Source: Takakia lepidozioides (lineage: Eukaryota > Plantae > Bryophyta). Taken from it: DNA of 17,240 nucleotides. Below the pieces are notes generated by a model. That model did not search any database. It had not been told where the DNA came from and was given only the letters and a program-made list of their open reading frames with translations. The stretch is from assembly GCA_030704615.1 (NCBI GenBank), contig JAKLZA010000328.1:1-17240 (forward strand), read 5' to 3'. Positions 1 through 17,240 of the stretch are shown here, one piece after another. The position numbers were made by a program, and so were the translations under genes. Positions within the stretch are counted from its first letter, which is position 1. Each line of letters starts with the position of its first letter.

Positions 1-281
1 AAGGGAATGGGCATTCCCACAGCTCGGTACAGGATGGTGTCTGACGGGGGAACGTGCCATTCGATTCCGCAACCTCCGTCGTTACCTAGCACGACAATGG
101 TCTCGTCAACCTGTCCAGGAACATCCTTCCTTTCTTCTTCCAAATAAACTGTGCCCGGTTTGAGCTTGAATTTGGAACAAAGGTAAGTTTCAGTCACTCT
201 GCAAAGTCCTCCCTCGTTTGGGATCCAGGCTCTCCCAAGTTGCGGAGGACAGCAAACTATAGCGTAGGAATTCGGAGCCAT
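1..281 (-). CDS. Hypothetical protein, runs off the left edge of the window
   Basis: Manual translation from ATG at 281: MAPNSYAIVCCPPQLGRAWIPNEGGLCRVTETYLCSKFKLKPGTVYLEEERKDVPGQVDETIVVLGNDGGCGIEWHVPPSDTILYRAVGMPIP..., with no stop before position 1. The same frame stays open upstream to ~572, so the start is uncertain. Not in the ORF track, presumably because it is truncated. No family recognised. Confidence 0.5.
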   Translation of the reverse strand, partial: MAPNSYAIVCCPPQLGRAWIPNEGGLCRVTETYLCSKFKLKPGTVYLEEERKDVPGQVDETIVVLGNDGGCGIEWHVPPSDTILYRAVGMPIP

Positions 282-696
282 CGAACACCGCACGGAGTTG
301 GCAAGTGCGAGGTTCAGTATAGCGACAGACCAAGGCTCACAGGCACCATGCGGAGTCCATCGACGATTGGAAGTTGCACATTGAAGTGGAAAGTATTGTT
401 TCAAGCTACATGCATGAAGGTGAGAGGTTTGATTCCATAGCCAGTGAGTATGACAATGATGGCCGATTCGGCGACGAAATAACATCTCCTGACAGTTTCT
501 CCTGAGGGTGGATCCAGCAGTATTCTCGATGCAGACAGGAACGTTCGCACTGACAAGTGCCAGGACAGCTGGTTAAAACAGTCAGACAACCAAGTTGTGC
601 TCATCAAGACTGGCCGCAATTGTGTTGTTTCGGAACAATGCAACCCATTGAGGTTCTAGATTTCCCGTCCCGAGTGATTCTTTCGATTGCTGGTGG

Positions 697-3172
697 ACGG
701 AAATACGGCGCCGCATTTCCGCATTTCCGTATTGCATCTTGGTCATGCACCAGAGCGACGGAAATGCGGCACTGAGTTTCCGTCCGGGGGAAACCTTTAT
801 ACTCTCCAGAACGGAAATGCGGTAACGCATTTCCATCCAGCAAGCACGGTATGTGAAGGTGGAACGGAAATGCGGTACCGCATTTCCGTTCTGATTGAGA
901 ATTATGAACAACGGGAACAGAAATGCGGCACCGCATTTCCGTCCGAGTCGCACTTTTCCGACATTTCAGAACGAAAAAGCGGCGCCGCATTTCCATTTTG
1001 TATCTGATGAATGGAGCTGAGGGATAGAAATGCTGCAGCACATTTCCGTCTTTAAAAGACATTCATACTCTCCAGAACGGAAATGCGGTACCGCATTTTC
1101 ATTCAACAAGCACGGTATGTGAAGGTGGAACGGAAATGCGGTACCGCATTTCCGTTCTGATTGAGATTTACGAACAACGGGAACAGAAATGCGGCACCGC
1201 ATTTCCGTCCGAGTCGCACTTTCGACATTCCAGAACGGAAATGCGGCGCCGCATTTCCATTTTGTATCTGATGAATGGAGCTGAGGGATAGAAATGCTGC
1301 AGCACATTTCCGTCCTTAGAAGACATTCATACTCTCCAGAACGGAAATGCGGTACCGCATTTTCATTCAACAAGCACGGTATGTGAAGGTGGAACGGAAA
1401 TGCGGTACCGCATTTCCGTTCTGATTGAGATTTCGAACAACGGGAACAGAAATACGGCACCGCATTTCCGTCCGAGTCGCACTTTTCGACATTCCAGAAC
1501 GGAAATGCGGCGCCGCATTTCCATTTTGTATCTGATGAATGGAGCTGAAGGATAGAAATGCTTGCAACACATTTCCGTCCTTAAAAGACATTCATACTCT
1601 CCAGAACGGAAATGCGGGTACCGCATTTCATTCAACAAGCACGGTATGTGAAGGGTGGAACGGAAATGCGGTACCGCATTTCCGTTCTGATTGAGATTTA
1701 CGAACAACGGGAACAGGAAATGCGGCACCGCATTTCCGTTCGAGTCGCACTTTTCGACATTCCAGAACGGAAATGCGGCGCCGCATTTCCATTTTGTATC
1801 TGATGAATGGAGCTGAGGGATAGAAATGCTGCAGCACATTTCCATCCTTAAAAGACATTCATACTCTCCAGAACGGAAATGCGGTACCGCATTTTCATTC
1901 AACAAGCACGGTATGTGAAGGTGGAACGGAAATGCGGTACCGCATTTCCGTTCTGATTGAGATTTACGAACAACGGGAACAAAAATGCGGCACCGCATTC
2001 CGTCCGAGTCGCACTTTTCGACATTCCAGAACGGAAATGCGGCGCCGCATTCCATTTTGTATCTGATGCATGGAGCCGAGTGCGATTCCGACAGCTTCAT
2101 ACAGCGCAATTCCGACCGCTTGAGACATTCATACTATCCAGAACGGAAATGCGGCAACGCATTACGTTCTGACTGAAAATCGTGAACCATCTGAACTAAA
2201 ATGCGGCACCGTATTTCCATCCGAGTCGCACCAACCAACATTCCAGAATGACTGAAAATCGTGAACAGTCGGAACTGAAATGCGGCAACGGATTTCCATC
2301 CGAGTCGCACTTCCAACATTCCAGGAACGGAATGTATTAGATTCAAAAGGGAAATGCGGCACCGCATTCCGTTCTGATGAAATATCCTGAAACCTCGGAA
2401 CTGAAATGCGGTACCGCATTTCCGTCGGAGTCGCACCTTCCGACATTCCAAACGGAAATGCGGCGCCCGCATTTCCGTTTTGTATGTGAGGCACGGAGCT
2501 GTGGAACGAAAATGCGGCACGCCATTTCCGCCCGTCAGACGTTAATACTCTACAGAACGGAAATGCGGTACCGCATTTCCATTCTGACTGAAAATCGTGC
2601 GCAACGGGAACAGAAATCCGGCATCGCATTTCCGTTCCAGTCGCACCTTCCGACATTCTAGAACGGAAATGCGGCGCCGCATTTCCGTTTTGTATATTGG
2701 GCCTGGAGCTGTGCTACGAAAATGTGTAGCAGCATTCCATCCATGTGAGACCTTCAAAGTTTCCGGACCGGAAATGCGGGCACCGCATTTCTGTCCAGGT
2801 GAGACCTCTATACTTTCCCGAACGGAAATGTGGCACGGCATTTCCATTCATCATCTAACGGATGTGAAGTGGGAACGGAAATGCGGTACCGCATTTCCGT
2901 TCACATTGAAAATCATGAACCACGGGAATAGAAATGTTGTGCCTCATTCCCGTCCAATCGCACCTTTCGACTTCCAGAACGGAAATGCGGCGCCGCATTC
3001 CCTTTGAATCTCATACTTGGAGTGTGGGACGAAATGCGGCACCGTATTTCCGTTCAACAACTAAGGTATGTGAAGGTGGAACGGAAATGCGGGCCGCATT
3101 TCTTTCCAACAAGTACGGATGTGTAGCTTCGTGATGGTACTTAACGGAAATGCGGCGCGCATTCGCATTTTC
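697..3172. repeat. Tandem array of ~46 palindromes GGAAATGCGGYRCCGCATTTCC at a 53-bp period
   Basis: AAATGC half-site starts at 762, 815, 868, 921, 975, 1028, 1081, 1134, 1187, 1239, 1292, 1345 and onward (52-54 bp steps). Copies continue with more divergence and a few irregular gaps to ~3148. The best copies extend to 28 bp (AACGGAAATGCGGTACCGCATTTCCGTT). Confidence 0.97.
801..2132. repeat. Higher-order repeat: 5 near-identical ~266-bp units, each made of 5 x 53-bp monomers
   Basis: Anchor ACTCTCCAGAACGGAAATGC recurs at 801, 1067, 1331, 1596, 1863 and (ACTATCC variant) 2133. The five different inter-palindrome spacers recur in the same order in each unit. Confidence 0.95.
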
Positions 3173-3512
3173 GCTCCAACTCATCAGACGCTGGGACGGA
3201 AATACCTTGAAAGTGAACCGTGGAGCAACGGAATTGCTGCACATGTCGGCACTCTATCTGACTGAAGGGCATGAGGCGGCGCGGCCTGACCGTTCGATAA
3301 TGATGTTTGTTTTTCGGACGGCAGGCGTACCCTCAACGATTCGAATTTCGTAATGACGCAAACTCCCCGAGGAGACACTTTCGTCCAACCCTTTCGACCC
3401 AAGTGGTGCATCACCGCCGTTTCATCTACTTTTGTAGGTGTCTCCTCAGTCACCCCTCTCGCGCCCTTTCCATCTGCACTCTTTGGCCCTTTTTCCTCTC
3501 TCTGTTCTTCTT

Positions 3513-6500
3513 ATGTCGAACCTGAGAGGGGGGGAGTTCGTGCACCAGCCAGGAGTCGAGGAGCTAGCTGCAGCACGTACACCCACCCGATCCCCCGAGC
3601 GCGGGTATTCCTGCCGGGCCTAGCCCTCTGCGATTCAAAGACGCGTCTTCGAAGGGCAAGTTCAAAGTCCCAGAGACGACTCGCGTTCTTCGGTCATGGA
3701 GAATCGCCAGCAGGGGTCGGGCCCTTCTCCAGCAAAGTCGAAGAAGAAGCAGCCGTCCCTCTACTGGCTTCTGAACCGGCTCAGGCCGATTCACCCCCCC
3801 CAACGCGAATGAAGCAGCAGGGTAGAAGACAGATTCAATTGCAGCAGACACCTTCACAGGCAAGGATGAGGAAGCAGAAGGCGACAGCGAACAAATCTAA
3901 AAACAGCTTCACGAGCTGAAGCTCAGTTCTGGAGGGAGGATTCCCGCCCTTTTGAAGATGTTAGGCCGACTCTGATGCAACGAGGGCAATGGGAGGAATC
4001 GACCGTTGATCTCGATTTGGTACCGGAAGGAGGAGGTGTACCGCTGCACGTTCGAGCAAGACCTCACCACGAATGAGCAAGCAGGCCCGAGGAGGCCCTC
4101 TGCAATGGCAGAGAATTGCCCGCAAACAGGCCCAGGAGTGCAGATCCAGTTGAGGATGCGCCAGCTGCTCAGCCACTACCGGACCCTACAGAATGTCTCC
4201 GGAGGATTTCAAACAGTGCAGCGGATAAAATGTGGAGGAGAACCACAGTAGCATGGCAGAGTTCTGGGGAGCAGGGTATTCCAGCGGACTCTTCGAATCC
4301 CACTCTGTCGCATGGTCTCCCTTCCCATCGTCAGGCAAGACCTTCCCGGAGATGTGGATAAGCTTCGTTTCGCATTTCGAGAAGGGGTACCGTTCGGGAT
4401 CGCAGCGTTTTACGTTTCCATTGAGAATGAGGATGGCGAAACTCGTGGACCCACTGCCGATGAATTGTTCAACGTGGGATACCCACTGGCACACTCGCAA
4501 CCACGAATTCGAGGCGGACGCTGAAGGGTGATCCCGACTTCGGCCATATGTCGGGTTAAAATGTTCTTTGTGTGGGACGGGAATCACCGGACTTCTCGCA
4601 TGGTGGAGTACATCAAGCAGAAACCCTGCCAAGCACATTGGCTGGCATTACATGGTGGAGTGTGTCATCCTCAAGGTGAAGGCGGCAGACTCCTCCCTGC
4701 TCAAGAATGCCATGGCGGACCTCAACTCGTAAGATACTCTTACCCTCCCTAGCACGTTAAAATGCGGTGCCGCATTTCGGTTGCCATTCTGGTTTGTTTC
4801 CGTGCTTCCGTGTACTGAACTGGAGAGTGTGCCTTCGGGTCACTGAAAATGCGTACGTGCAACCCACATGGCACACATGCTGTATAGGGTGAGGAAAATG
4901 TCTCAGTGTACTGATCCGCAGATGGTTGCGGAAAATGCTGGAGCCCGAGCTCATTCAGAAAGCCGTTGCAAAAACAGACCGGACATGGTATCGTCTCACT
5001 ATGGATGGAATGGTGGAGGGATATATGAAGTAGTCGTCCTCCAATTTTCCCTCTGATCACCTTCCCAATTTTCAGTAATGTTTCCACATTGAATCGAATG
5101 TAACGCTTCTGCATGTTTTTGTTGGGCAGTCAAACATCCAAGTTGGATTTGGCCCATGCCAAACGCTTCTTCATGGAAAGTGGGGGCAGGGTCAGGTGCA
5201 AACGTTGCAGTCATTGACTGAGCACTTGAAGGAAGCCGGTGTCAAGTCCAGAACCAAATACAAGTCAAAGCTTGTGAAGCTGGTGGCAATTGCAGGATCT
5301 GGCACTTGAAAGGACTTCATCCCCGAGATTGCAAACACTATTCTCGGGGCCATGCAGCCGACCATGCAATTGGAGAAAACTGCATCACCTCTCAAACGGC
5401 ATGTGTGGAGGCGAAAGAGAAGGTGAGGTTTCAATGCACTGAGAGTTCCTTCCTAGCCAATAGCCACTCTCTTCCAGCTCCGACATTGGATGGAAATGGC
5501 AGACACGGTGGCTGTCGACTGGAATGCATCGAGAGCATAAGGACAATGTGGTCTTTTCCACTCGAAGTTTTCCGACCCTGCAGTGGAGGGGTGGCTCAAC
5601 CGATGACTTGTGGTTCCAGGTAATTCAAGGTACTTTCCCAGATTTGCTTTTCTGAAATGAATTCACTGAAATGCTACGTGAAATTGCAGTTGGGAATCAC
5701 AGTTAATGTCGAATGCCGAAGGAGCGAGTCGAGGCACACAAATTCGTTCGGCTTGTACGTCAAATGGGATGGAACACAGACATTGGAAGATACGTGACAC
5801 GTTTCAGATGTGCGTACAAGCGCAACCTTTTCCGCCAGAGAGCTACGAGACAGCAAGAAGGAGCGTGGAGTTTACACATCAGGAGGGAGCGGGAAAGCTG
5901 CTGCAATGCGAAGTGTTTACAGGTGAAGCACAGCTTGCCTTGTATGCGAAGCCTGGTTACGAGTGGTTGTCTCGGAAAAATGCGGCACCGCATTCGCATT
6001 TTATGTTTTCGGTGTGGCACTCTGCCAGTAGGTGGTCTCAATTTTGCTCACGCATGCTGATGCCTTGCAGGTATATGAAATACGTGCTCCTTCAGACAGG
6101 GGCCCTGGCTCAAGAGCCCCCGTTCTTCATGGCTTGACCGTGGCGGCCCAAGCTGTGTTACACACCCGAGATGCAGAAACAATGGCATCCCGCGCATATC
6201 GTTGGATGCCCGTGGTACCTGGAACCCATTTGTGTTGGCGGTATTGTTACGAGTCTGAGAAAGATCTGCACGCCTTGGCAGAAGAGAAGAGAGAAAGGGA
6301 AAGACGTTGTCCCTGCGGGCCAAAGTCGGCAAAGGAATCTGCTGCTCGGAAGAATCCGGAAAGGCAGCTGAGGATGGCACAAAAAGCGGTGGATGCAGCT
6401 TGCAGGCCCAACAGAGGGGTCGAAAGAAGAGGACTCGCCAGCAAAGCAAGCAGCAGCTGTTGTGACACCCGCCAAAACGAAGAAGAAGCAGAAACGCCTG

Positions 6501-8391
6501 TTCAGGAAGAGGTGAGGAAAGGGACTACGATGGAGACTTTGCAACCAGCACACCCCCCCCAAACGCAGGCTGCCTCCCCTGTGCCCACCGTTGTCAATGA
6601 GAGGCTACGAGAACTGGCTCGGCAAAGACGGCCACTCTTCAACCCCAGGGGGGCACCCTTTCGAGCCGGTGGAAATGAAGAGGCCGAGAAAGTGGCTCCC
6701 GAAACAGTAGTCCAGATGTGTAAATGAGAGTTTTTGGCGGCTTTGGATGGACGGGGCAGCCAAGTTGCATACATGAAGACCATGGAGGGTCTGAAGGGCA
6801 GGACTGAAGAAGGCGACTGCGAGAGCCTTCCGACCACCCGTTCTTTGAGAGGGTGTGTGCAGACAAGGATTGTAGGAGGGGCGGAAATGCCACCGAGTGG
6901 TCTTGCGATATGATCATCTTGGATATTCCGGACGGAGAGCCTGTGGAAGGACTGCAAGCTTTGCCATCTTGGAACAGGTACTCGGAGGACTTTTGGAAAA
7001 AAGGATTCGGGCTTGCCCGCATGGTGTTGGACGACAGAGGCGTGTGGTTGTCCTGGCGAGCAGAGAAAAAAACACTCAGACAGGAATTGCGAAGTGGACC
7101 CGCAAGAGCGCCGTCCCGATTCTGAAAAAGAAGTGGACGTGCATCAACACACTGGGCCTTCGGTCGGAAGGGAAGGAAGAAGGTGATTACGACACTGGCA
7201 CTCGTCCATTCATTTGCTTGGGTGTTTTCAAATGCGGTGCCGCATTCGGTTTCTAATCGTTTTCCCCCTGTGTATGCAGAGACGAAGCAGTTCGATGCAT
7301 ACTGCTTTGTGAAGGAGAACTCCACCTTTGCTTTCCGGAAGGAGGGAGGAAAGGTTGACCCGAACTGCGACCCACTCGATTACGACGTTCTGTTCAACAA
7401 CGTTCCCAAGGAACTTCTCCCTCATAGCCTCACTTCAACGGAAACCCTGCGGTACTCACGGACTCGGAGCCCTGCCTTCATTCAGACAATTATGGAGACA
7501 TGCACAGACGTGGAGGGCACAGTGCTCGACCTCATCTGTGGAACAGGTATGCAGAATCTTGATCTCTGCTGTTCTGCAAATTCTCGTTAGGATGTAGTTC
7601 GCAACATCTGAAGCGCCATGTGGTAATGTGTGGATGGCATTGTAACAGGTGCCTCAATGTGGGCTGGGCGGTTTTCCGACCGGCACCTCTTTGCCTACGA
7701 GGAGGATTCATCCGTGTGGGGATCCCATCTGGAGGGGCTGCAACGGAATGTGAAGGCTCCCGACAGAGCGGAAGTCTCCTCGGATTCGTCGGAGTCCGAG
7801 GAAGACACAGTGGACATTGATGCGGAGGAGAACCCGGAATACGAGTGAGTGCAAACATTGTAAGTTTGCAAAGCCTTCTGGGTCATTTTTGTCAAACGAA
7901 TTTCCCGACTGTGGTTCTCATTAGTCTCGTTGATGATTGTCATGTGCAGGATTGCAGGGTCCGGGTCGAAACATGTAGGGCCTACACTTCCTGCCAGGAA
8001 GAATGTCCCGTTCTTTGCGAGGGCCGATTTCATGACGAGCCCGGTGAGGGACTACTCCCTTCCTAGTTATGCAGCTAAACTCGCAAATACAGCGATTAGA
8101 AGAAGTGAGAATCCCAGTAAAGTAGAGCAGATTTTGGAGAGGGCTAGGGAGGACAGAAGGATAAGGAAAGAGTTGGCAGCAGCTCAGACAGGTAGACGGG
8201 TACGAAAGTACATATGTGATTCAGCGGATGAGAGCGACGCAGACAGGGAGGAAGACGACCCAACGGAGGTGAGATGGACAGTTCCGCAAGGGGAAGATGG
8301 GATTTTCGAAAGCCTGGCCAACGAGCAGTCCGCTGGAGATGAGAGGGCACTGAGGGGGTGGAGGAGAGCAGGACAGTCTAGAACAGGATGA
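3513..8391 (+). CDS. Spliced gene, frameshifted in this copy: ParB/Srx-like N-terminal domain + low-complexity linker + beta-class amino (N6A/N4C) DNA methyltransferase-like domain + acidic tail
   Basis: Frame-hopping translation gives ...IPLCRMVSLPIVRQDLPGDVDKL..F..GYR....AFYVSIENEDGE...KMFFVWDGNHR...WHYMVECVILKVKAADSSLLKNAMADLN, later CDMIILDIPDG...WNRYSEDFWKKGFGLARMVLDDRG...RSPAFIQTIMETCTDVEGTVLDLICGT|GASMWAGRFSDRHLFAYEED. Phase-consistent GT-AG introns at 5923-6070, 7183-7279, 7547-7648 and 7845-7949. Less certain introns at 4729-~4838 (acceptor reads CGG), 5030-5129, 5423-5477 and 5620-5689. Start codon uncertain. Confidence 0.75.
4280..4728 (+). other. ParB/Sulfiredoxin-like domain coding segment
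   Basis: Hydrophobic strand followed by DGNHR (4576-4590) matches the ParB/Srx-fold signature hhhDG.HR. An upstream 'IPL..h......R' segment resembles the ParB N-terminal start. Confidence 0.7.
4760..4777. promoter_or_regulatory. Single palindrome copy inside a predicted intron
   Basis: AAATGCGGTGCCGCATTT within the intron that starts GTAAG at 4729. Confidence 0.75.
5978..5994. promoter_or_regulatory. Single palindrome copy inside a predicted intron
   Basis: AAATGCGGCACCGCATT within intron 5923-6070. Confidence 0.75.
6895..7740 (+). other. Beta-class N6/N4 DNA methyltransferase-like domain coding segment
   Basis: Motif order is IV (DMIILDIPDG, DIPD at 6922-6933, where DPPY/SPPY is expected), then 'ARMVLDDRG' (like RVLKPGG), then motif X-I 'RSPAFIQTIMETCTDVEGTVLDLICGTGASMWAGRFSDRHLFAYEED' (like KP..L...I...T..G..VLDPF.GSG.T..A....R..IG.E.D). 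The 7547-7648 intron splits motif I in phase. Confidence 0.75.
7230..7246. promoter_or_regulatory. Single palindrome copy inside a predicted intron
   Basis: AAATGCGGTGCCGCATT within intron 7183-7279. Confidence 0.75.
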
Positions 8392-8552
8392 GGATTCGGA
8401 TGATTTTCAAGATTAATAGAATTTTAATGAAGTCTCTGTAAATGTAAATTCTCTTCCAGAGTATATAAAGGAAATTCTGCCCGACATTCGTGACCCCTCT
8501 CCAGTGTGCATTCCAGCCACACAATCGCCCAAACCACGACGCTCCCAAAATC

Positions 8553-9287
8553 AGAAATGGGGCACCGCATTTCCAAAACAGGGGAACTCTAAGAACCTCT
8601 TTTCGAAATGCGGCACCGCATTTCCAAAACAGGGGAGGGACTAACTAAATTTTCCATTTCAATGTTGGCATAGTAAAAAGTAATCTGAATTGGAAATGCG
8701 GTGCCGCATTTCCAAAATTCCTTTGTCCACACGCCAGTTTTGGCCTCTCCCGCTCATTGCATGGATGCCACCACGCTTACAGAGGTCGAACAACGAGGTC
8801 GAACAAGGAGGTCGACATGGCGGGATTGAAAATGCGGTGCCGCATTTCAGTATTGGGGATGGTCGTTGTTCGAACTGCAGGCCCATCAGCAAAAAATTGG
8901 CACCGCATTCCATTGTTAAAAAAAGTCGATGACGGACATGGAAATGCGGCGCCGCATTTCCAGAACGGACATCGCAATTTGTCCATTTGCAGACCCTCTC
9001 TCGGAAATGCGGTAACGCATTCCATCGCGCTGGTCGGAAATGTCACACTTTTCGAAGTGTTGTACGGAAATGCGGCACCGCATTCCCTTGTCCAAAAAGA
9101 AGTTTCCATTGCCAAGCTGGAAATGCGTCGCCGCATTTGCAATGCCAACCTCGTTTTCTGATCAATTTATAGACCCGTGTGTGGTATTTCGTGTACCTGG
9201 ACGGAAATGATGCACCGCATTCTTGTCCGACATGGAAATGCGGTGCCGCATTTCGATCCCGACATGGAAATGCGGCGCCGCATTTCG
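8553..9287. repeat. Second cluster of ~12 palindrome copies with mostly unrelated, irregular spacers
   Basis: Half-sites start at about 8555, 8606, 8694, 8830, 8894, 8942, 9005, 9068, 9121, 9205, 9236 and 9268. The last copies form a ~31-32 bp tandem (CCGACATGGAAATGCGGYGCCGCATTTCGAT). Confidence 0.93.
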
Positions 9288-9543
9288 ATGTCCGACATGG
9301 CGTTACTCTGGTATATTCTTGACACATGACTCACATACCGGTTACTCTGCTATATTCATCCGGACAGACACATTGTAGAAATGAGACATCAAATTGTAAA
9401 CAGTGGGCCAATTCCGACAGTTATTCAACACAATGAAACACAATCATACAGAAGTGAGGTACGATGGGTTTATTGATCGGACACGATGTCTCACATTTAC
9501 CAACTGCAGACAAAACTAAGCCCTTCCTCCTTCTACATGGGCT

Positions 9544-10338
9544 TCACCAAGTCGACGGAACTTCGATACCCCTCAAAACAAGCTCATCACTGCTGCGGCA
9601 CCTCGAGGATAACTGCAATTCGGTCGTTCTGCTGCCCTTGCTGGAGCCGACGACAATGTCATGTCCATCAATGATACCACCATCATACATTGACAAGGTC
9701 ACTGTGGGCTCATGTGCCCGTGCGATTCGTCTTCGCAACGCAGCCGAATGTCTCCATACACTGGAAGAGAGAGGGAGTGATCTGCACGTATATAGTTTTC
9801 CCCGGTGCCGTCCTCCCTGGTCCACTTGCAGCAGTTCCAGCGCCAAAGCGAGGCCGTGCGTGATCTATCCGGCATCCCTTTCCAGCTTGGTATATAGACG
9901 AGGCAACAATTTCAGGACCCACGGACCGCATTGACCCTCGCCCTCACCTCGCTCAAAGCGGTAATAGCCCTCCAGATACTCCATTGCGCGCAAAGACTCT
10001 TTGATTCTAGCAGCGTCTGTGAAAACAGAGAGCCAGACAATGATGTCTCCTGATTCTGGTTTGAACATAGCATAATCGTGGCCATGATAAGGGCAGTCGG
10101 CTGGATTTCGGCGGCACGGCATCCTTGAAAAAGAGAGTAGCGGAGTACGCTCAATGACAGCAGCTCCCGGATGGAGGAGGAGCAGCGCGGTGGGGGGTGG
10201 CTGGAAAAAGTTCAAGCTAACGCTTGCAATTTCTCACAAACACTCCAGGGCACATTAAATTTCCCCCCTACAGGATCCTGGACCGATGAAGATTGGCTGC
10301 TGCATGAATGTAGTCCGTTTCAGTTTCCTACCTGCCAT
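9544..10338 (-). CDS. Hypothetical protein A (frameshifted), paralog of 10494-11234
   Basis: Joins ORFs 9865..10215 and 9544..9846: FSRMPCRRNPADCPYHGHDYAMF...GDIIVW...EYLEGYYRFERG...GGRHRGKLYTCRS...SMYDGGIIDGHDIVV...ELVLRGIEV. Start at ATG 10338 is tentative. Confidence 0.65.
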
Positions 10339-10388
10339 GCAAACTATGGGCAGTCACTGCCAGGTGGGCCGATAGCCACTGGACACGA

Positions 10389-10453
10389 CGAAGTCCATCC
10401 CCCTCTTCGATTGTAAATGCGGCGCCGAATTTCCATCGGGGGGATGGACTTCG
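10389..10453. promoter_or_regulatory. Inverted repeat centred on a palindrome copy, between the divergent paralogs
   Basis: CGAAGTCCATCCCCC (10389-10403) and GGGGGATGGACTTCG (10439-10453) form a perfect 15-bp inverted repeat enclosing AAATGCGGCGCCGAATTTCC (10415-10434). Confidence 0.8.
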
Positions 10454-10493
10454 GTGGCAGATCTCAAACTATAACTTGTGATGAGAAAGATAT

Positions 10494-11234
10494 ATGGCTT
10501 CATCCACCGCTGGCGTGATGAACACGTTCCACCTCCGTCGGTGGGTACGGGACCCAGATGCTCCATTATTGGAGGCCGGACTGCTCTTCCGCTTCGTATC
10601 ATTTCCAAAATCTAAGGGCTTCGTAGCTGTCCGCAGGTCATCGGCATCCAAGTCGTCCTCAGGTCCTCCTTTGCAAGGATGCCGTGCTTCCGGAACCGGA
10701 CGACTGCCCCTTTGGAGGCATCGATTATGCAATGTATTCGGCCACATCGGAGACATTGTTATCTGGTACACAGATTACAGAGAAGATACTGGTTCGATTG
10801 TGGAAACATTGGTGGCTTTTGAGTATATCGTAGGCCACTACGCCTTCGAGCGGGGTGACGATCTTGGTTTGAGGAGTCGTGGCTCCTGCGCATCCTCGAT
10901 TCCGATTTTCCCAGCTACGACGGTCACCCATGCAGAAGAAGGCGCACTGCTATGCTGTTGGCGGTGGAACTGGCCACTGAACGTGGGTGGACTCCATCGG
11001 AGAGACCTATTCTCCTCGAGGAGTGCGCTCTCTCTTCTCCATTGTATGGGGACATTCGCATTGGTGTGGACGACGACGAAAACGTGAAGTTCCATATTCG
11101 ATGGTGGTATGATTGAAGGGCAGGACATTGTGGTGAACATCACTAGGGGCGGTACAACGGCTGTTGCAATCGACTTTACATGGAGGAGCCCCAGGACTCA
11201 TGAGCTAGTTCTGAGAGCAGTCGAAGTCCATTGA
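10494..11234 (+). CDS. Hypothetical protein B (frameshifted), paralog of 9544-10338
   Basis: Frame-hopping translation: FARMPCFRN.DDCPFGGIDYAMY...GDIVIW...EYIVGHYAFERG...GGLHRRDLFSSRS...SIFDGGMIEGQDIVVNITRGGTTAVAIDFTWRSPRTHELVLRAVEVH*, with TGA at 11232-11234. Confidence 0.65.
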
Positions 11235-11265
11235 CAACGTGACTTGTATTCAGTAGGCACAGGGC

Positions 11266-11481
11266 TCAAGATTTGAGGGCACAATCAGCACAGTAGAGTG
11301 CGTGCTTCAAATGCAATTCATGTGGATCAATAAAAACCTCATGTGCCCTCTTTTTATTCATTCTGTGTCCATCGTTCCAGAATGCGTCATTGCTCATTTC
11401 GTTTGGGATTGGGGAGTGTGGTGTGAATTTTGCAAATGGCTGGTAGGCTGAAATGGGCCCCATTGTACAGAGCAGTACCAC
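11266..11481 (-). CDS. Possible small protein with His/Cys-rich C-terminus
   Basis: 71-aa ORF ending HEVFIDPHELHLKHALYCADCALKS, convergent with paralog B. No homology recognised. Confidence 0.2.
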   Translation of the reverse strand: MVLLCTMGPISAYQPFAKFTPHSPIPNEMSNDAFWNDGHRMNKKRAHEVFIDPHELHLKHALYCADCALKS

Positions 11482-11630
11482 CTACCATTCGCGAAACATT
11501 GCCTTTCAATATATAATTCTAAATAACATTGCCGAACCTCCTTCATCGGAGGTCTTTCCCCCTATGACCGTGGCTGGCACCCTAAACCCTATTCACCGCG
11601 GACACTCATTTCTGGAAAAATAGTGCTGCT

Positions 11631-11696
11631 GCTCATGTTTTTTCCACACTTACGACTCTGCTCATGGCTCATGCCGCTCATGGCTCATGGCTCATG
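11631..11696. repeat. GCTCATG short repeats
   Basis: Copies at 11631, 11660, 11667, 11676, 11683 and 11690. Confidence 0.85.
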
Positions 11697-11710
11697 AAAT
11701 AGCAGCCCCC

Positions 11711-12400
11711 TGTCACGACCATAGGGAACGGAGAGCAGGACAGGGAACGACTGTGGGGACAACACTGCAAAGGAACATGTCAGTTCACGGACGACGTTAG
11801 TGAGGGAAACGGTTGTTAGAGCCACGGGTAGGAAGATAAAGGAAGAAGCAGGGAATTTTGGGGGAGGATGATGATTCTTGGGGAGCACTTCTGGGTCATG
11901 CATGAGAGGAGATCGGGCGGAGAGCAAAGATGGAGAGCACGGTGAAGGAGGAACGAGGATTAGTAGATGCTTGTTATATGCAAAGCGATAGTGATATCGT
12001 AGAGCAGATTAGAGACACAATGGCTTCGGCCTGATACCTGGTAAATCATAATCTGATACTTATACGATACAATCACAATGTGTAGAGAGATCTGAGTGAA
12101 GCTGTGGAATGAATGGATGAGTTGATGGAATCCAATAGATGATGATGAAGGAAACTGATACTTAATTATCAATGGTAGGTAGCTAACATGAATGCCAAAA
12201 GGGAAACAAATAGGGAACACCCCCATGATACACTAGCTGTAGGTCATGACTGATTGTTCTGCGCGGGCTGAGTTCTTAGAGATTTCCAACTCTTCTATCT
12301 TGGAGTTTCCGCCTCTGATAGCGAAGGGATGGGTGAGTAAAAGCCGCGCGACATTGGCGACCATACTGGGGAACTGAGTCATGAACAACCAGATGTGACA
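11711..12400 (+). repeat. 5' LTR (690 bp)
   Basis: Starts TGTCAC and ends GTGACA (6-bp terminal inverted repeat), followed by a PBS-like sequence and coding sequence. The 3' LTR is outside the window; the predicted TSD would be CCCCC (11706-11710). Confidence 0.8.
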
Positions 12401-12416
12401 GGCATCTGGTGGGATC
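12401..12416 (+). promoter_or_regulatory. Putative primer-binding site
   Basis: GGCATCTGGTGGGATC lies immediately after the LTR. It loosely resembles the complement of a tRNA-Arg 3' end (from memory, not verified) and lacks the T of the canonical TGG. Confidence 0.4.
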
Positions 12417-13695
12417 ATGGTGGTTGGACCATTAAAGAATTGAAGTGAATCAAATTCCCTGTGGAACGAAGGAAGAAAGATTGTCCAAACAATTCTTTCA
12501 AAGGTTCTTGGAATTGCCAGACGGTTGTAAAGAAAATATTCTTAAGCGAGTGCATGATGCTGATCCGGAATGGGGTCTGGAGAAAGGAGTGATAAAGATT
12601 TATCAGGTAGCTGTAGTAGAGGAAGAGCACGTTGGTTACCCACGTTGGTTTATGTGATAGCATTGCTATCCATTAAGCGAGTAGAGTTTGAAGGCTGGGA
12701 AGAAAGAAATAAAGGTGAATGTTTATACTCATATGCATGAAGAGCTTGTACTGGTAAAGAATTGGATTCCAAAGGATATTTTGTGGATCAAACTCACACC
12801 AAGAACAGCTTTTCAGACTTGTTTGCCATATGGTTATATGGTAACGGAGACTTCAAGTATAGCCAAGGGTGCATTGAAGCTTGAAAGAAACCCAGGCATA
12901 TACGAGAGATTACAGAAGAGAGTTTTGGTTATTGCCACATTAAAAGAAATGAAAGACATGGGACATGAGTGATGAAAGAGAAGCTAGACGCCAGAGATAT
13001 TCAGCAAAAAGAGAGAAGCTATCTGAAAGCTAATTATCCATATCTTTGGGAGAGAGGAATAGACATAGGGGAATCATCTGGACCTCTCACACCATTAAGA
13101 TCACAGAGTACATCACCCATACGGAAGAAACTAGAGTTGGATGCCATTCCTTCTGTTTTCTTCGCAAGAAGATTATAAGGGAATTGGTACGAGAAGAAGA
13201 TCAATCACGAGGTGAAGGTGAAAGATCTGAGGTACATCCCTGGATAAAAGATTTGACAGAAATCTTTGATAAGAGTTGGCATGGAACACCAAAATCAGGA
13301 ACTCCAGTTTCTGAAGCGGAAGGTGAAGAAGGAGAAGAGGATGTGGCAGAGCCAACGGAGAGTTCAGACTCTCCAACACCATTACAGTTGAGTTACATGA
13401 GTGAAGAAGAAACCCAAGGGCAGAACTTGGAGGATGAAAACAGAGAGAAGAAATTGGAAGAGGAAGAATATGAAGAAGTAGACCCAACAGCTGAGGTTGA
13501 GACTACAACCAGGACATCCCAACCCGTTGGACCTGGATCAAGTGGAGCACTTGGATCACAGGCCAACGAAGGTGTGGTCGGCTCAGGGGGATCAGGCGGG
13601 CTGCTGGATCTGGCTCTAGGGGGACAGGGAGTGTGGGGGAAGTAGTGCAACTGAAGCTGGGAATACTATGAATATCGTGGGGCCGGAAGCAGGGA
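12417..13695 (+). CDS. Extra 5' ORF or long N-terminal extension of Gag (frameshifted)
   Basis: Abutting plus-strand ORFs 12445..12657, 12688..12972, 12969..13178 and 13046..13645 have protein-like composition, ending in an acidic/Gly-Ser linker. Confidence 0.55.
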
Positions 13696-15100
13696 GTGCT
13701 CAAGGGCCACCACTTGGTGGAAGATCCACCACAAAACAACAGGTCCAGAAGGACCAGCACCAGCAAGGGGGTGCCAGTACCTGTCAGTGGGCAGAAGGTA
13801 GGGCCACAGATGGCGTTACAACCAACACGGGCAAAACCACCCTTTCCAATATATTCAGGAAAACGGGATCCCGATGTACACATTAGCCAATTTGAGCACA
13901 TGTGTATAGTGAACAATGAGAATGGCGATGATGCCAAGATGAGATTGTTTCCTTGTTCACTTATCAAGAAAGCAAGTGAATGGTATGCAAGATTCCCTGA
14001 TAATCATTTCCTAACCTGGAATGGCTTGAATACAACATTTCGAAATAGGTTTAGGACAAGTAAAAACTGAAGATGAAGTGTATGGAAGTTTACACAGTTA
14101 AAGCAAAAGAAGCATGAAACTGTTGAGGAGTATATGGAAAAGATGGAATTGATGATGAAAAAGCTGGCTGCAGTACCGCACCGGGTTACAGAAGACTTGG
14201 TTTGTGAGTGGACTAAGACCTGAGTTGCAAAAGAAAGTGGATATGTTACCCCATAATACAGTGGAGGAGGCATTTGAAACTGCAAACAGGATTGAGCAAT
14301 TGGGAATGCTCAGGAGAGAGAAAAATGATGATGAGGACTCTGAGGATGAGTCAGATGAAGAAGAAGAGCAAGAACTAAAAAGGAAGAGTAAGAGAAAGGG
14401 AAGTTGAAGAGGGATAACTATGAAAAAATATTGGAAGAAATCTTGAAGAAGAAGTATGCCACAGAGGCTGCAACACATTGGAGGAAGGGTGTATGGTGTG
14501 CAAAGTGCCAGAATGAAGGCCATACCACCACAGAATGCCACGTGAAGAAGGAAGAAACACTGTACTATCTGTAAAATGGATAACCATTCTACTGAGAATT
14601 GTTACTACAACAGAAGGACAGCTACAAGAGAACTAGGCAAGTAAGGGTGCGCATCAGGTGCAGCCCCAGCCAAGAAGAAACAATGATCAGGACCACTATG
14701 GTAGGTCTGGTGGTTATAACAATGGCATGGAATGGAGAGGTAATTCAAGAGGGAATTACCAAGGAAATTCCAGAGGCAACTATCAGGGTAATCCAAGGGG
14801 GAATTACCAGCCCGCCGGGAATCAGGATTACAGAAATAATCCAAGAACAGACCAAGGGCGAGGACCCAATGGTGAAGAACTATGTTACTATTGTAATCAG
14901 CCAGGACATCGCAGGGCAGCCTGTTCATTCTGGATAAGACACCAGAATGAGATGAGAGCTCCTGTGAATGAGGGCCCAGTGGTGGCAGCTCACATGGTTA
15001 GGCCATGTGTTGTACCAGAAGTAAGTACAATGATAGTAACAAGAAGTAAAGCCAAAACTAATACCTCCAGTAGTAGAAGAAGAAGATGATGATGAAGGTG
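13696..15100 (+). CDS. gag: Gag: retrotransposon capsid domain plus three CCHC zinc knuckles (frameshifted)
   Basis: PFPIYSGKRDPDVHISQFE...RLFPCSLIKKASEWY...TWNGLNTTFRNRF. CX2CX4HX4C at 14497-14538, 14561-14602 and 14883-14924. GNSRGNYQ x3 repeat near 14739-14810. Confidence 0.88.
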
Positions 15101-15489
15101 GCAATGATATGCCTGAAGATGAAGAGAGACTTGGAAAGATGAGAAGGAACTGCACAAGGACAGTGGCAGATACTATAAGGGAAATGCAGAAGAGTACTGA
15201 TATTCATGTGGCAGATTCCTCTGATTCTGATGGAGAAGAAGAAGGGAGTGAGGAAGAAAGGAAGAAAAGAAGATGCAGACATGCAAAGTAATGAAGAGAC
15301 TTTGGCTGGAAGTAATATGCCAGACCAAAGCAGAAATTACCATTGGACAGTTATTAACAGTGGCACCTTATTGTAGGCATAGGCTGTATCAAGCAATCAA
15401 TCGAATTGCCCAGGAGACAGGAAACACAGACCTGAACAGCAAGGTGACCAGTTATAATGTGAAGCCGGAAGGGCGAGAAACAGTCATGG

Positions 15490-15900
15490 ACTTTGATGAT
15501 TCTATGCCAGTAATCCAATTGAGAATTGGGAGCACAGAACTAACTGATGTACTGATAGATGGAGGTTCTGGAGTAGTAAATATCATGACAGACCAATTAA
15601 GGAAGAAGCTTGGTCTAAGTAACATTGAAACCAGCCCCATTTACAGTAACAATGGCAGATCAAAGAAGTGTACAACCATTGGGATAATAAGAGAATTAAG
15701 ATAAGATAAAGAAGATGATCTTTATGATCACAGTAACTGTGTTGAAAATGGATGAAGTCATGGAGGCTTACTCCTTAATATTTGGACGTCCGTGGCTGAA
15801 ACAGGCCAGGGTATTCCATGACTGGAATTCTAGTTACTAACCGTGCATAATGGGATACACGAGATACAAATTACCACAAAGAAATCTAGTAGATTACCTG
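15490..15900 (+). CDS. pol: Aspartic protease domain (frameshifted)
   Basis: DVLIDGGSGVVNIM catalytic motif, and downstream YSLIFGRPWLKQARVFHDW flap/C-terminal motif. Confidence 0.88.
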
Positions 15901-16229
15901 CTACAAGAAGACCTCGAGGAGTCGAGAGAGAGTATGACTGGAAAGGACGATGGATGAGGACTGGAGGAGGAAGCAGGAGAGCTACCCTATTTGCTGCACA
16001 CCAGAGTGGGAGCAGGTTGCAGAGATTGCGGCTAAGGAAAGTCTAAGTGTTTGAGAGATATCTGCTGTGGTGTAGTGACAGCAACACCAACTGAAGAGGA
16101 AACTAGCATTTACCCATCACATTTCTATGAAGAAAGAGAAGAGAATAGAAATCCTAGAAGAACCAGCCACTGTGAGCTTACAGGATGAAGTGGGTGACTG
16201 GTTGGACAATCACAGCTGATGAGCAAGTG

Positions 16230-17240
16230 AGGGAAGTGAATGTGGGAACTAAAGAGGAACCGAGGATGGTGAAAGTAGGAGCTGATTTGGAGCCGGAGTT
16301 TTTGAGAAGCTAAAAGCTTGTTCATCAAATACAGAGATGTATTTGCTTGGAGCTATGAGGATATAAAAGGGATACCACCTGAAGTCTGTCAGCATAAGAT
16401 TGAATTGGAACCAGGGTCAGTACCAATCAAGCAGGCGAGGTACAGAATGAATCCCAACTACGCACAGAAGGTTGGAGGAGAAGAGATTAAGAAGTTGGCT
16501 GAGGCTAAGTTTATATACCCAATAGAGTATACAACTTGGTTGTCACCCATTGTGATAGTTCCCAAGAAGAATGGTAAACTAAGAGTATGTGTGAACTACA
16601 AGAAGCTGAATGCTTGTATGAAGAAAGATCCTTCCCTTTGCCATTCACAGAAGCAATAGATTAGACACTGTGGCAGGCCATGAGATGTACTCATTCATGG
16701 ATGGCTTCAGTGGTTATAATCAAGTGCAAGTGGCGAGAAGACCAAGGGGAAAACAGCTTTCATCACAGACTGGGGGGCTTATGCATACAAAGTCATGCCC
16801 TTTGGACTTTGTAATGCACCAGCGACCTTTCAGAGAGTGATATGGATCTTTTCATGAGTATCTGGATGATTCATGCAGGTATTCTTGGATGATTTCAGTG
16901 TGTACAGCTCTAAGAATGAGCACTTGCATAAATTGGAGTTAGTTATGTCTGGCCAGATGCAGGATGAGAGGTCTGGGCTGATGAATCCAGAGAAGTGTAC
17001 TTCTGTTGTGAACTCAGGGGTGCTTCTGGACACATGGTGGTAAGAGGGGGATTCTTGTGGATACCAGAAAGACAGAGTCCTTAAAGCATCTCCACCACCA
17101 GTGAATGTTAAAAGTCTAAGGAGATTCCTGGGCCAACCAGTAGGAGTGATCTACAGAAAAAGATTGTCAAAAAGGAAATGCCAAATAGCAGCACCATTGA
17201 CGCATACTCACTGAAAGAGAAAGGATGCAAGTGTTGACTG
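16230..17240 (+). CDS. pol: Reverse transcriptase (frameshifted; truncated by window end)
   Basis: [47 protein letters not shown], and FLDD at 16882-16893. Confidence 0.93.

Follow-up and report, generated by a model that had tools for sequence, protein, structure and literature searches.

Does a gene that appears to fuse a ParB-like segment to an amino-methyltransferase-like domain, set among many copies of one 22-base palindrome, form a single module with these copies, and what would such a module do for the DNA that carries it? The question is raised by a 17,240-nucleotide stretch of contig JAKLZA010000328.1 (assembly GCA_030704615.1), called the window below at its full length. We propose that the 60 palindromes and the gene lie inside one large, high-copy plant DNA transposon, that the ParB-like protein of the gene would bind the palindromes as a dimer and so recognise its own element, and that the bound protein would keep the element free of silencing by host methylation. 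This whole chain, in which the module lets a giant DNA transposon recognise itself and escape silencing, is put forward tentatively, at somewhat under even chances.

An indel-tolerant scan found 60 copies of the palindrome in the window and none in three shuffled 4-kb controls. A separate scan that allowed at most three mismatches gave 45 matches, compared with none in 200 dinucleotide shuffles. Forty-four copies lie upstream of the gene, 12 downstream, three in predicted introns and one between two head-to-head paralogs. A preliminary description of this DNA had given about 46 upstream and about 12 downstream copies; the arrays are real, with 44 copies counted upstream and 12 downstream, and four others (at 4758, 5976, 7228 and 10413) had been overlooked. 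The palindromes and the gene are laid out as follows.

699..3167, no strand: upstream array of 44 palindrome copies, mostly at 53 bp spacing
799-2080, inside the upstream array: 264-bp higher-order repeat, five units
8553..9287, no strand: downstream cluster of 12 palindrome copies, irregularly spaced (31-136 bp)
4758..4779, no strand: lone palindrome in a predicted intron 3' of the ParB-like exon
5976..5997, no strand: lone palindrome within intron 5923-6070
7228..7249, no strand: lone palindrome in a predicted intron that ends at 7279
10413..10434, no strand: lone palindrome close to the midpoint between the two head-to-head genes, in a likely shared promoter
3513..8391, plus strand: accessory gene that is likely spliced, its start and stop placed approximately, with many frameshifts in this copy
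4288..4728, plus strand: ParB/Srx-like segment with DGNHR (4576-4590), a motif-level assignment
6904..7710, plus strand: N6/N4 methyltransferase-like domain in three exons, with DIPD, VLDLICGTG and FAYEE

The upstream array is built of a 53-bp unit, five of which make up each 264-bp higher-order repeat (4.8 copies, 96% identity between copies, indicating that part of the array was made by recent unequal exchange). The spacing is 51-54 bp in 36 of 43 upstream intervals, about five helical turns, which would put the sites on a common face of the helix. Of the 60 copies, 54 could be aligned without gaps; conservation is high at their core positions, and a pyrimidine-purine step occupies the centre of all 54 (CA 22, CG 13, TA 13, TG 6). 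Over 33 pairs, adjacent palindromes were 0.80 identical compared with a score of 0.39 for the spacers; the core has been kept while the spacers diverged. All three intragenic copies fall in predicted introns, which occupy about 16% of the gene span (P ~0.004, some intron borders having been set by eye). With this pattern the palindromes look selected, as would be expected if a dimeric protein specific to the element docked on them, and the docking role first suggested for them fits their design in both core conservation and intron placement.

The predicted gene product reads, in order, as a low-complexity N-terminus, the ParB/Srx-like segment, a conserved middle, the methyltransferase-like domain and an acidic tail. 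Introns 5923-6070 and 7547-7648 have clear GT..AG borders, the remaining borders being set by eye, and the motifs were located at 4576-4590 (DGNHR), 6922-6933 (DIPD), 7522-7533 (VLDL) and 7690-7704 (FAYEE), in agreement with the intron-containing DGNHR gene with a methyltransferase-like C-terminus originally predicted. GNHRLxA in the gene resembles Box II of ParB (GERRxRA), and the strand-helix order, judged by eye, fits ParB-N with a 45-residue insertion ahead of the motif. A ParB identity of the N-terminal segment is plausible, and the ParB-like protein is probably the binder of the palindromes. Long contigs of X13 and X14 match the DGNHR stretch only (4558-4590) and then continue as different coding-like sequence, which makes one or more diverged paralogous families likely in organism A (read by eye).

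Many frameshifts interrupt this copy. An X6 contig over 6664-6977 differs from the window by 31 gaps but by no substitution, and some window indels are contradicted by nearly all read depth; the indels therefore look largely private to the window copy, and the frameshifts probably reflect assembly errors or damage to a single copy. At 6664-6977 and elsewhere the window differs from deep short-read contigs by about 10% in indels with few or no substitutions, while no such difference is seen over 7520-8321; the assembly is likely one of long reads that was polished unevenly. Runs X13 and X14, guessed to be RNA, cover parts of the gene, and intron sequence is present in one X14 contig. The small shares from organisms B and C gave short pieces and carry no weight in the evidence.

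Evidence that the gene and the downstream sites belong together came from read cover. Reads of four runs (X1 and X3 being one sample) were placed on 3250-12300, and 30 of 30 bins were covered in all four. Short contigs placed numbered 48,592 for X1 and 24,263 for X3; the summed depth of X3 over 3250-11705 was about 36,000-570,000, mostly 140,000-480,000, a sum that is not a copy number; and seven of the eight X6 contigs among the matches listed (264-576 bases) had depths of 107-193. High copy is thus a reading of contig fragmentation and depth together. The gene, the downstream cluster and the paralog pair behave as one repeated unit, 3250-11705, up to the edge of a Ty3 long terminal repeat (LTR) at 11710-11711, which X6 and X7 mark with loose ends; the downstream cluster lies within the repeated unit, which runs about 2.4 kb beyond it. 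The module of gene and cis sites proposed at the outset is upheld to the extent that the gene and the downstream palindromes share this unit. Three further frames accompany them.

9559..10160, minus strand: gene A of the head-to-head paralog pair, of no known family, inside the repeated unit
10645..11231, plus strand: gene B of the head-to-head paralog pair, of no known family, inside the repeated unit
3..572, minus strand: frame of 190 codons, of no known family, open to the window edge and divergent from the main gene across the array

The paralogs A and B are 62.5% identical in DNA over 606 nt (E 2e-45), and the pair (9559-11231) has no family match in Pfam, PHROGs or NCBIfam. Frame 3-572 has no family match either; we infer its membership in the element, and its CpG level is like that of the element. 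Family scans covered 30 frames and 16 pieces out of 207 listed open reading frames; within that scope no gene piece exceeded the Pfam, PHROGs or NCBIfam cut-off for ParB or methyltransferase, and neither a ParA partner nor a transposase was seen, as the preliminary description had also noted. No transposase or element end was seen within the window, and the element extends beyond it. We consider it quite probable that a giant multi-gene DNA-transposon-like element is present; of the mobile or virus-derived origin first envisaged, the large repeated unit agrees with the former, and a viral origin found no support in the scans.

Base composition bears on what such a module might do. With the palindromes removed, the ratio of observed to expected CpG is 523/661 = 0.79 over 1-11710 (gene 0.74, paralog pair 0.84), whereas the Ty3 gag-pol next to it stands at 32/157 = 0.20 and a decayed homolog, L001, at 12/109 = 0.11, with a CHG ratio of 0.22. 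A plant host is suggested by the Ty3 element, by the "plant metagenome" label on X6 and by this loss of both CG and CHG at the homologous locus. The family thus seems to have escaped the CpG decay seen in its Ty3 neighbour and in the dead homolog, which fits protection from 5-methylcytosine (5mC). Anti-silencing as the purpose of the module is a possibility that we rate just below an even chance. A bolder version, which we find improbable, is that of a land-plant transposon family with a domesticated bacterial ParB clamp whose dimers load on the helically phased arrays, spread over the element in a cytidine triphosphate (CTP)-dependent manner and, aided by a methyltransferase domain of non-canonical type, hold thousands of copies free of 5mC; were this true, VirB would have a counterpart in eukaryotes, and anti-silencing would have a second system with no relation to VANC.

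Just ahead of the LTR, five GCTCATG copies lie at 11660-11696, where X8 (organism B) has loose ends. The sequence from 11711 to 17240 is a frameshifted Ty3/gypsy retrotransposon, with the LTR from 11711, a primer-site-like motif at 12355, a gag assigned to PF03732 at E 0.0028, and protease-like and reverse-transcriptase-like frames recognised by eye. No Rfam match was found in the window.

A phmmer run with exon 7279-7545 returned 10 matches, five of them true exon-sized homologs of 32-43% identity; P0001, P0004, P0005, P0006 and P0009 were dropped as spurious matches to repeat-rich bacterial proteins. A metagenome scan gave four homologous loci, L001-L003 being one locus, and L005 was discarded as a chance antisense match. 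L001, which belongs to another genome, contains a whole, heavily decayed, collinear homolog: 12 of 52 weak local matches share a single diagonal across 3.4 kb, the five best among them, and the homolog appears to have four intron positions in common with the window gene. Word-seeded searches for full-length homologs yielded 19, 28 and 7,435 candidates, none significant; PDB sequence searches gave chance matches only, tblastn found nothing in phages and noise of E 2-4 in plasmids, and no relatives were found in the viral or genome contigs scanned. The window palindrome was likewise absent from the viral and prokaryote sequence collections searched.

Some features of these loci stand by themselves. 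CATATG is in excess in the L001 locus (16 compared with 4.5 expected and a maximum of 10 in 200 shuffles), and seven copies lie at 120-465, upstream of the decayed homolog, where they could be a remnant site or chance. A non-palindromic tandem repeat at 7122-7424 of L001, also present in L002 and L003 and about 3 kb downstream of the homolog, has a period of 51, close to the 53 of the window's upstream array. L003 carries an intact intronless frame of normal CpG ratio (0.81) at 6895-8073, about 6 kb from the decayed homolog, which we take to resemble a plant sterol methyltransferase.

Several results weigh against the proposed self-recognition and anti-silencing module. Box I of ParB is not recognisable in the N-terminal segment, and no helix-turn-helix was identified, the middle pieces (frameshifted fragments) having no family match. 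Against a comparison profile built from eight ParB-type proteins, hhalign gave a weak probability of 1.2%; ParB local scores were equalled by 38 and 0 of 1000 shuffles, whole-domain scores by 14 and 2 of 300, and by 16 of 300 each when 7-residue blocks were shuffled. For the N-terminal piece, Atlas led to NTP_transferase instead of ParB. The window palindrome was found in none of the four homologous loci (three of which are one locus), and no comparable array is present in L001, which is covered for roughly 740 bases on its upstream side. The link of the upstream array to the repeated unit is one that we infer, read placement having started at 3250, and CpG retention could equally fit a young or recently arrived family. 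No PF02195 match appeared in Pfam scans of the window pieces, and the AlphaFold model of the segment, with a predicted local distance difference test score (pLDDT) of 35.8, is too low for use; what stands of the ParB-like N-terminus described earlier is the Box-II-like motif together with weak profile scores. The comparison of arrays among homologs, advanced originally as a check, tells weakly against the module, with no window palindrome in the four loci and L001, the single distinct locus that has long flanks, heavily decayed. The L001 comparison is a weak test, because its upstream flank is short and loss of CG and CHG sites would erase a CG-rich palindrome.

The same absence from L001 would suit a different binder. 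The palindromes may be bound by another protein of the element, whether a transposase or TnpA-like regulator encoded beyond the window or one of the three unknown genes, with the ParB-methyltransferase-like gene as a passenger; three frames of no known family stand beside the palindromes, the element runs past the window, and transposases and TnpA are reported to activate their own copies in a sequence-specific way (10.64898/2026.08.24.746577). We nevertheless judge this unlikely, as the densest arrays bracket the ParB-like gene, three of its introns carry a site, and one Plavaka family after another combines a ParB-like gene with arrays of inverted repeats (bioRxiv 10.1101/2025.02.11.637652).

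If the ParB-like protein is the binder, the fusion might instead be catalytically active as an amino-methyltransferase, docking on the palindromes and leaving N4-methylcytosine (4mC) or N6-methyladenine (6mA) on its own element as a self-mark, which we consider distinctly unlikely. The beta class of amino-methyltransferases is defined by motif IV ahead of motif I, and this order is seen here, the motif-IV-like DIPD preceding a motif-I-like VLDLICGTG that is split by intron 7547-7648 and followed by the motif-II-like FAYEE. The best Atlas matches belong to PF01555 (top score 0.87, 126 shared features, a lead only), all 10 of the best Atlas matches with a family fall in PF01555 or its clan, and homolog P0003, alone among nine aligned members, scores PF01555 at E 0.13. 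Self-marking is also the role proposed for an Ectocarpus fusion protein (PMC12477816). Against it, the window reads DIPD in place of the canonical (D/S/N)PP(Y/F/W), whose known forms are SPPY, DPPY, NPPY and DPPW (PMC8885841). DIPD is probably the family state, since the deep, collapsed X6 contig over 6664-6977 has no substitutions relative to the window, and a homolog is likewise non-canonical at motif IV. An AlphaFold model of the domain (pLDDT 37.9) was too low for use, and a methyltransferase reference search in eight phage records gave one weak match. Thus the beta-class C-terminus described earlier survives in its motif order and its leaning to PF01555 and fails at its catalytic motif; canonical methyltransferase activity is doubtful on these residues, and the domain, whose catalytic motif has no aromatic residue, is probably an S-adenosylmethionine- or DNA-binding module rather than a canonical enzyme.

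That nothing binds, the arrays being neutral tandem expansions of a hairpin-prone motif in an ordinary repeat, is very unlikely: the higher-order repeat copies, 96% identical, would be expected of it, but the core is conserved where the spacers have diverged at fixed spacing, and tandem expansion cannot place isolated copies in three introns and one intergenic centre. Least probable of all is that an episome or endogenous virus has here a true parABS-like system for segregation or packaging, two of the roles first entertained, for although a ParB-like motif adjoins clustered palindromes and ParB and methyltransferase genes occur together at phage ParB-terminase loci (PMC4738411), the gene is likely spliced, with introns that appear common to a distant homolog, no ParA, terminase or capsid family was found among the frames and pieces scanned, and neither the palindrome nor a true homolog was found in the viral contigs or prokaryote genomes scanned.

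Set beside bacterial ParB/parS, the module of palindromes and ParB-like protein shares the Box-II-like motif and palindromic sites near the gene, and differs in that its palindrome differs from canonical parS, its gene is eukaryotic and likely spliced, and about 45 extra residues stand ahead of the motif. A precedent for a ParB-family anti-silencer that lost its ParA link is Shigella VirB (PMC10653881). Bacteria-derived amino-methyltransferases are known as host genes with an intact SPPY in Marchantia (MpDN4MT1, bioRxiv 10.1101/2021.02.12.428880) and in bdelloids (N4CMT, PMC8885841), whereas the window gene belongs to a repeat, has DIPD at this motif and is joined to a ParB-like domain. The arrays also differ from CACTA subterminal repeats in not being confined to element ends, given the internal cluster and the intron sites.

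A likely functional analogue is found in the VANC proteins of Arabidopsis VANDAL elements. VANC21 sites in VANDAL21 lie in introns, intergenic regions and tandem repeats, and demethylation has been shown (PMC5735166); the window likewise has an element-specific motif accumulated in tandem as well as in introns, intergenic and upstream positions. The VANC motifs differ in being 9-bp, non-palindromic and of a single orientation, and no VANC similarity appeared among the Pfam matches of the window pieces, VANC itself not having been searched directly.

The closest parallels, compared by description, are algal. PAG3, carried by a red-algal Plavaka (EnSpm/CACTA) element of Bostrychia moritziana, combines a ParB-like gene with tandem inverted repeats and has been proposed to bind and modify its own element (bioRxiv 10.1101/2025.02.11.637652). 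It shares with the window a giant multi-gene element, a ParB-like N-terminus that is weak there too (HHpred E 0.29) and adjacent inverted-repeat arrays; it differs in that PAG3 is fused to a 2-oxoglutarate-dependent oxygenase, with the methylase separate (PAG2, with SET), whereas in the window both parts form one gene, the likely host is a land plant, and further sites occupy introns and a likely bidirectional promoter. In Ectocarpus, the accessory gene of Sola1-1_Ec32, a 21.5-kb DNA transposon, encodes 1104 aa with a ParB-like part and an N4C/N6A methyltransferase, was proposed to bind and self-mark its own element, and was called Ectocarpus-specific (PMC12477816). Its fusion order is identical to ours, its size similar and its carrier again a DNA transposon, while the main text of that report does not mention palindrome arrays.

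On the features compared, tandem inverted repeats beside a ParB-like gene and a large repeated multi-gene element, the window matches this algal ParB-accessory kind; with the pairing already published as a proposal, it does not count as a system of a new kind. Plavaka elements have been reported in streptophyte algae and moss (PMC13519894), and no land-plant report of a ParB-accessory module was found in the literature searched, which did not cover Iyer et al. 2011, so that the window probably extends the module to land plants. The algal idea stands, in the portions of those sources consulted, as a proposal without a defined site, whereas this locus offers a sharply defined site of 22 bp, regular spacing, sites inside introns and a likely shared promoter, and a difference in CpG retention from the neighbouring Ty3 element, so that binding and the anti-silencing idea already put forward for algal transposons can be put to direct test in what is likely a plant element.

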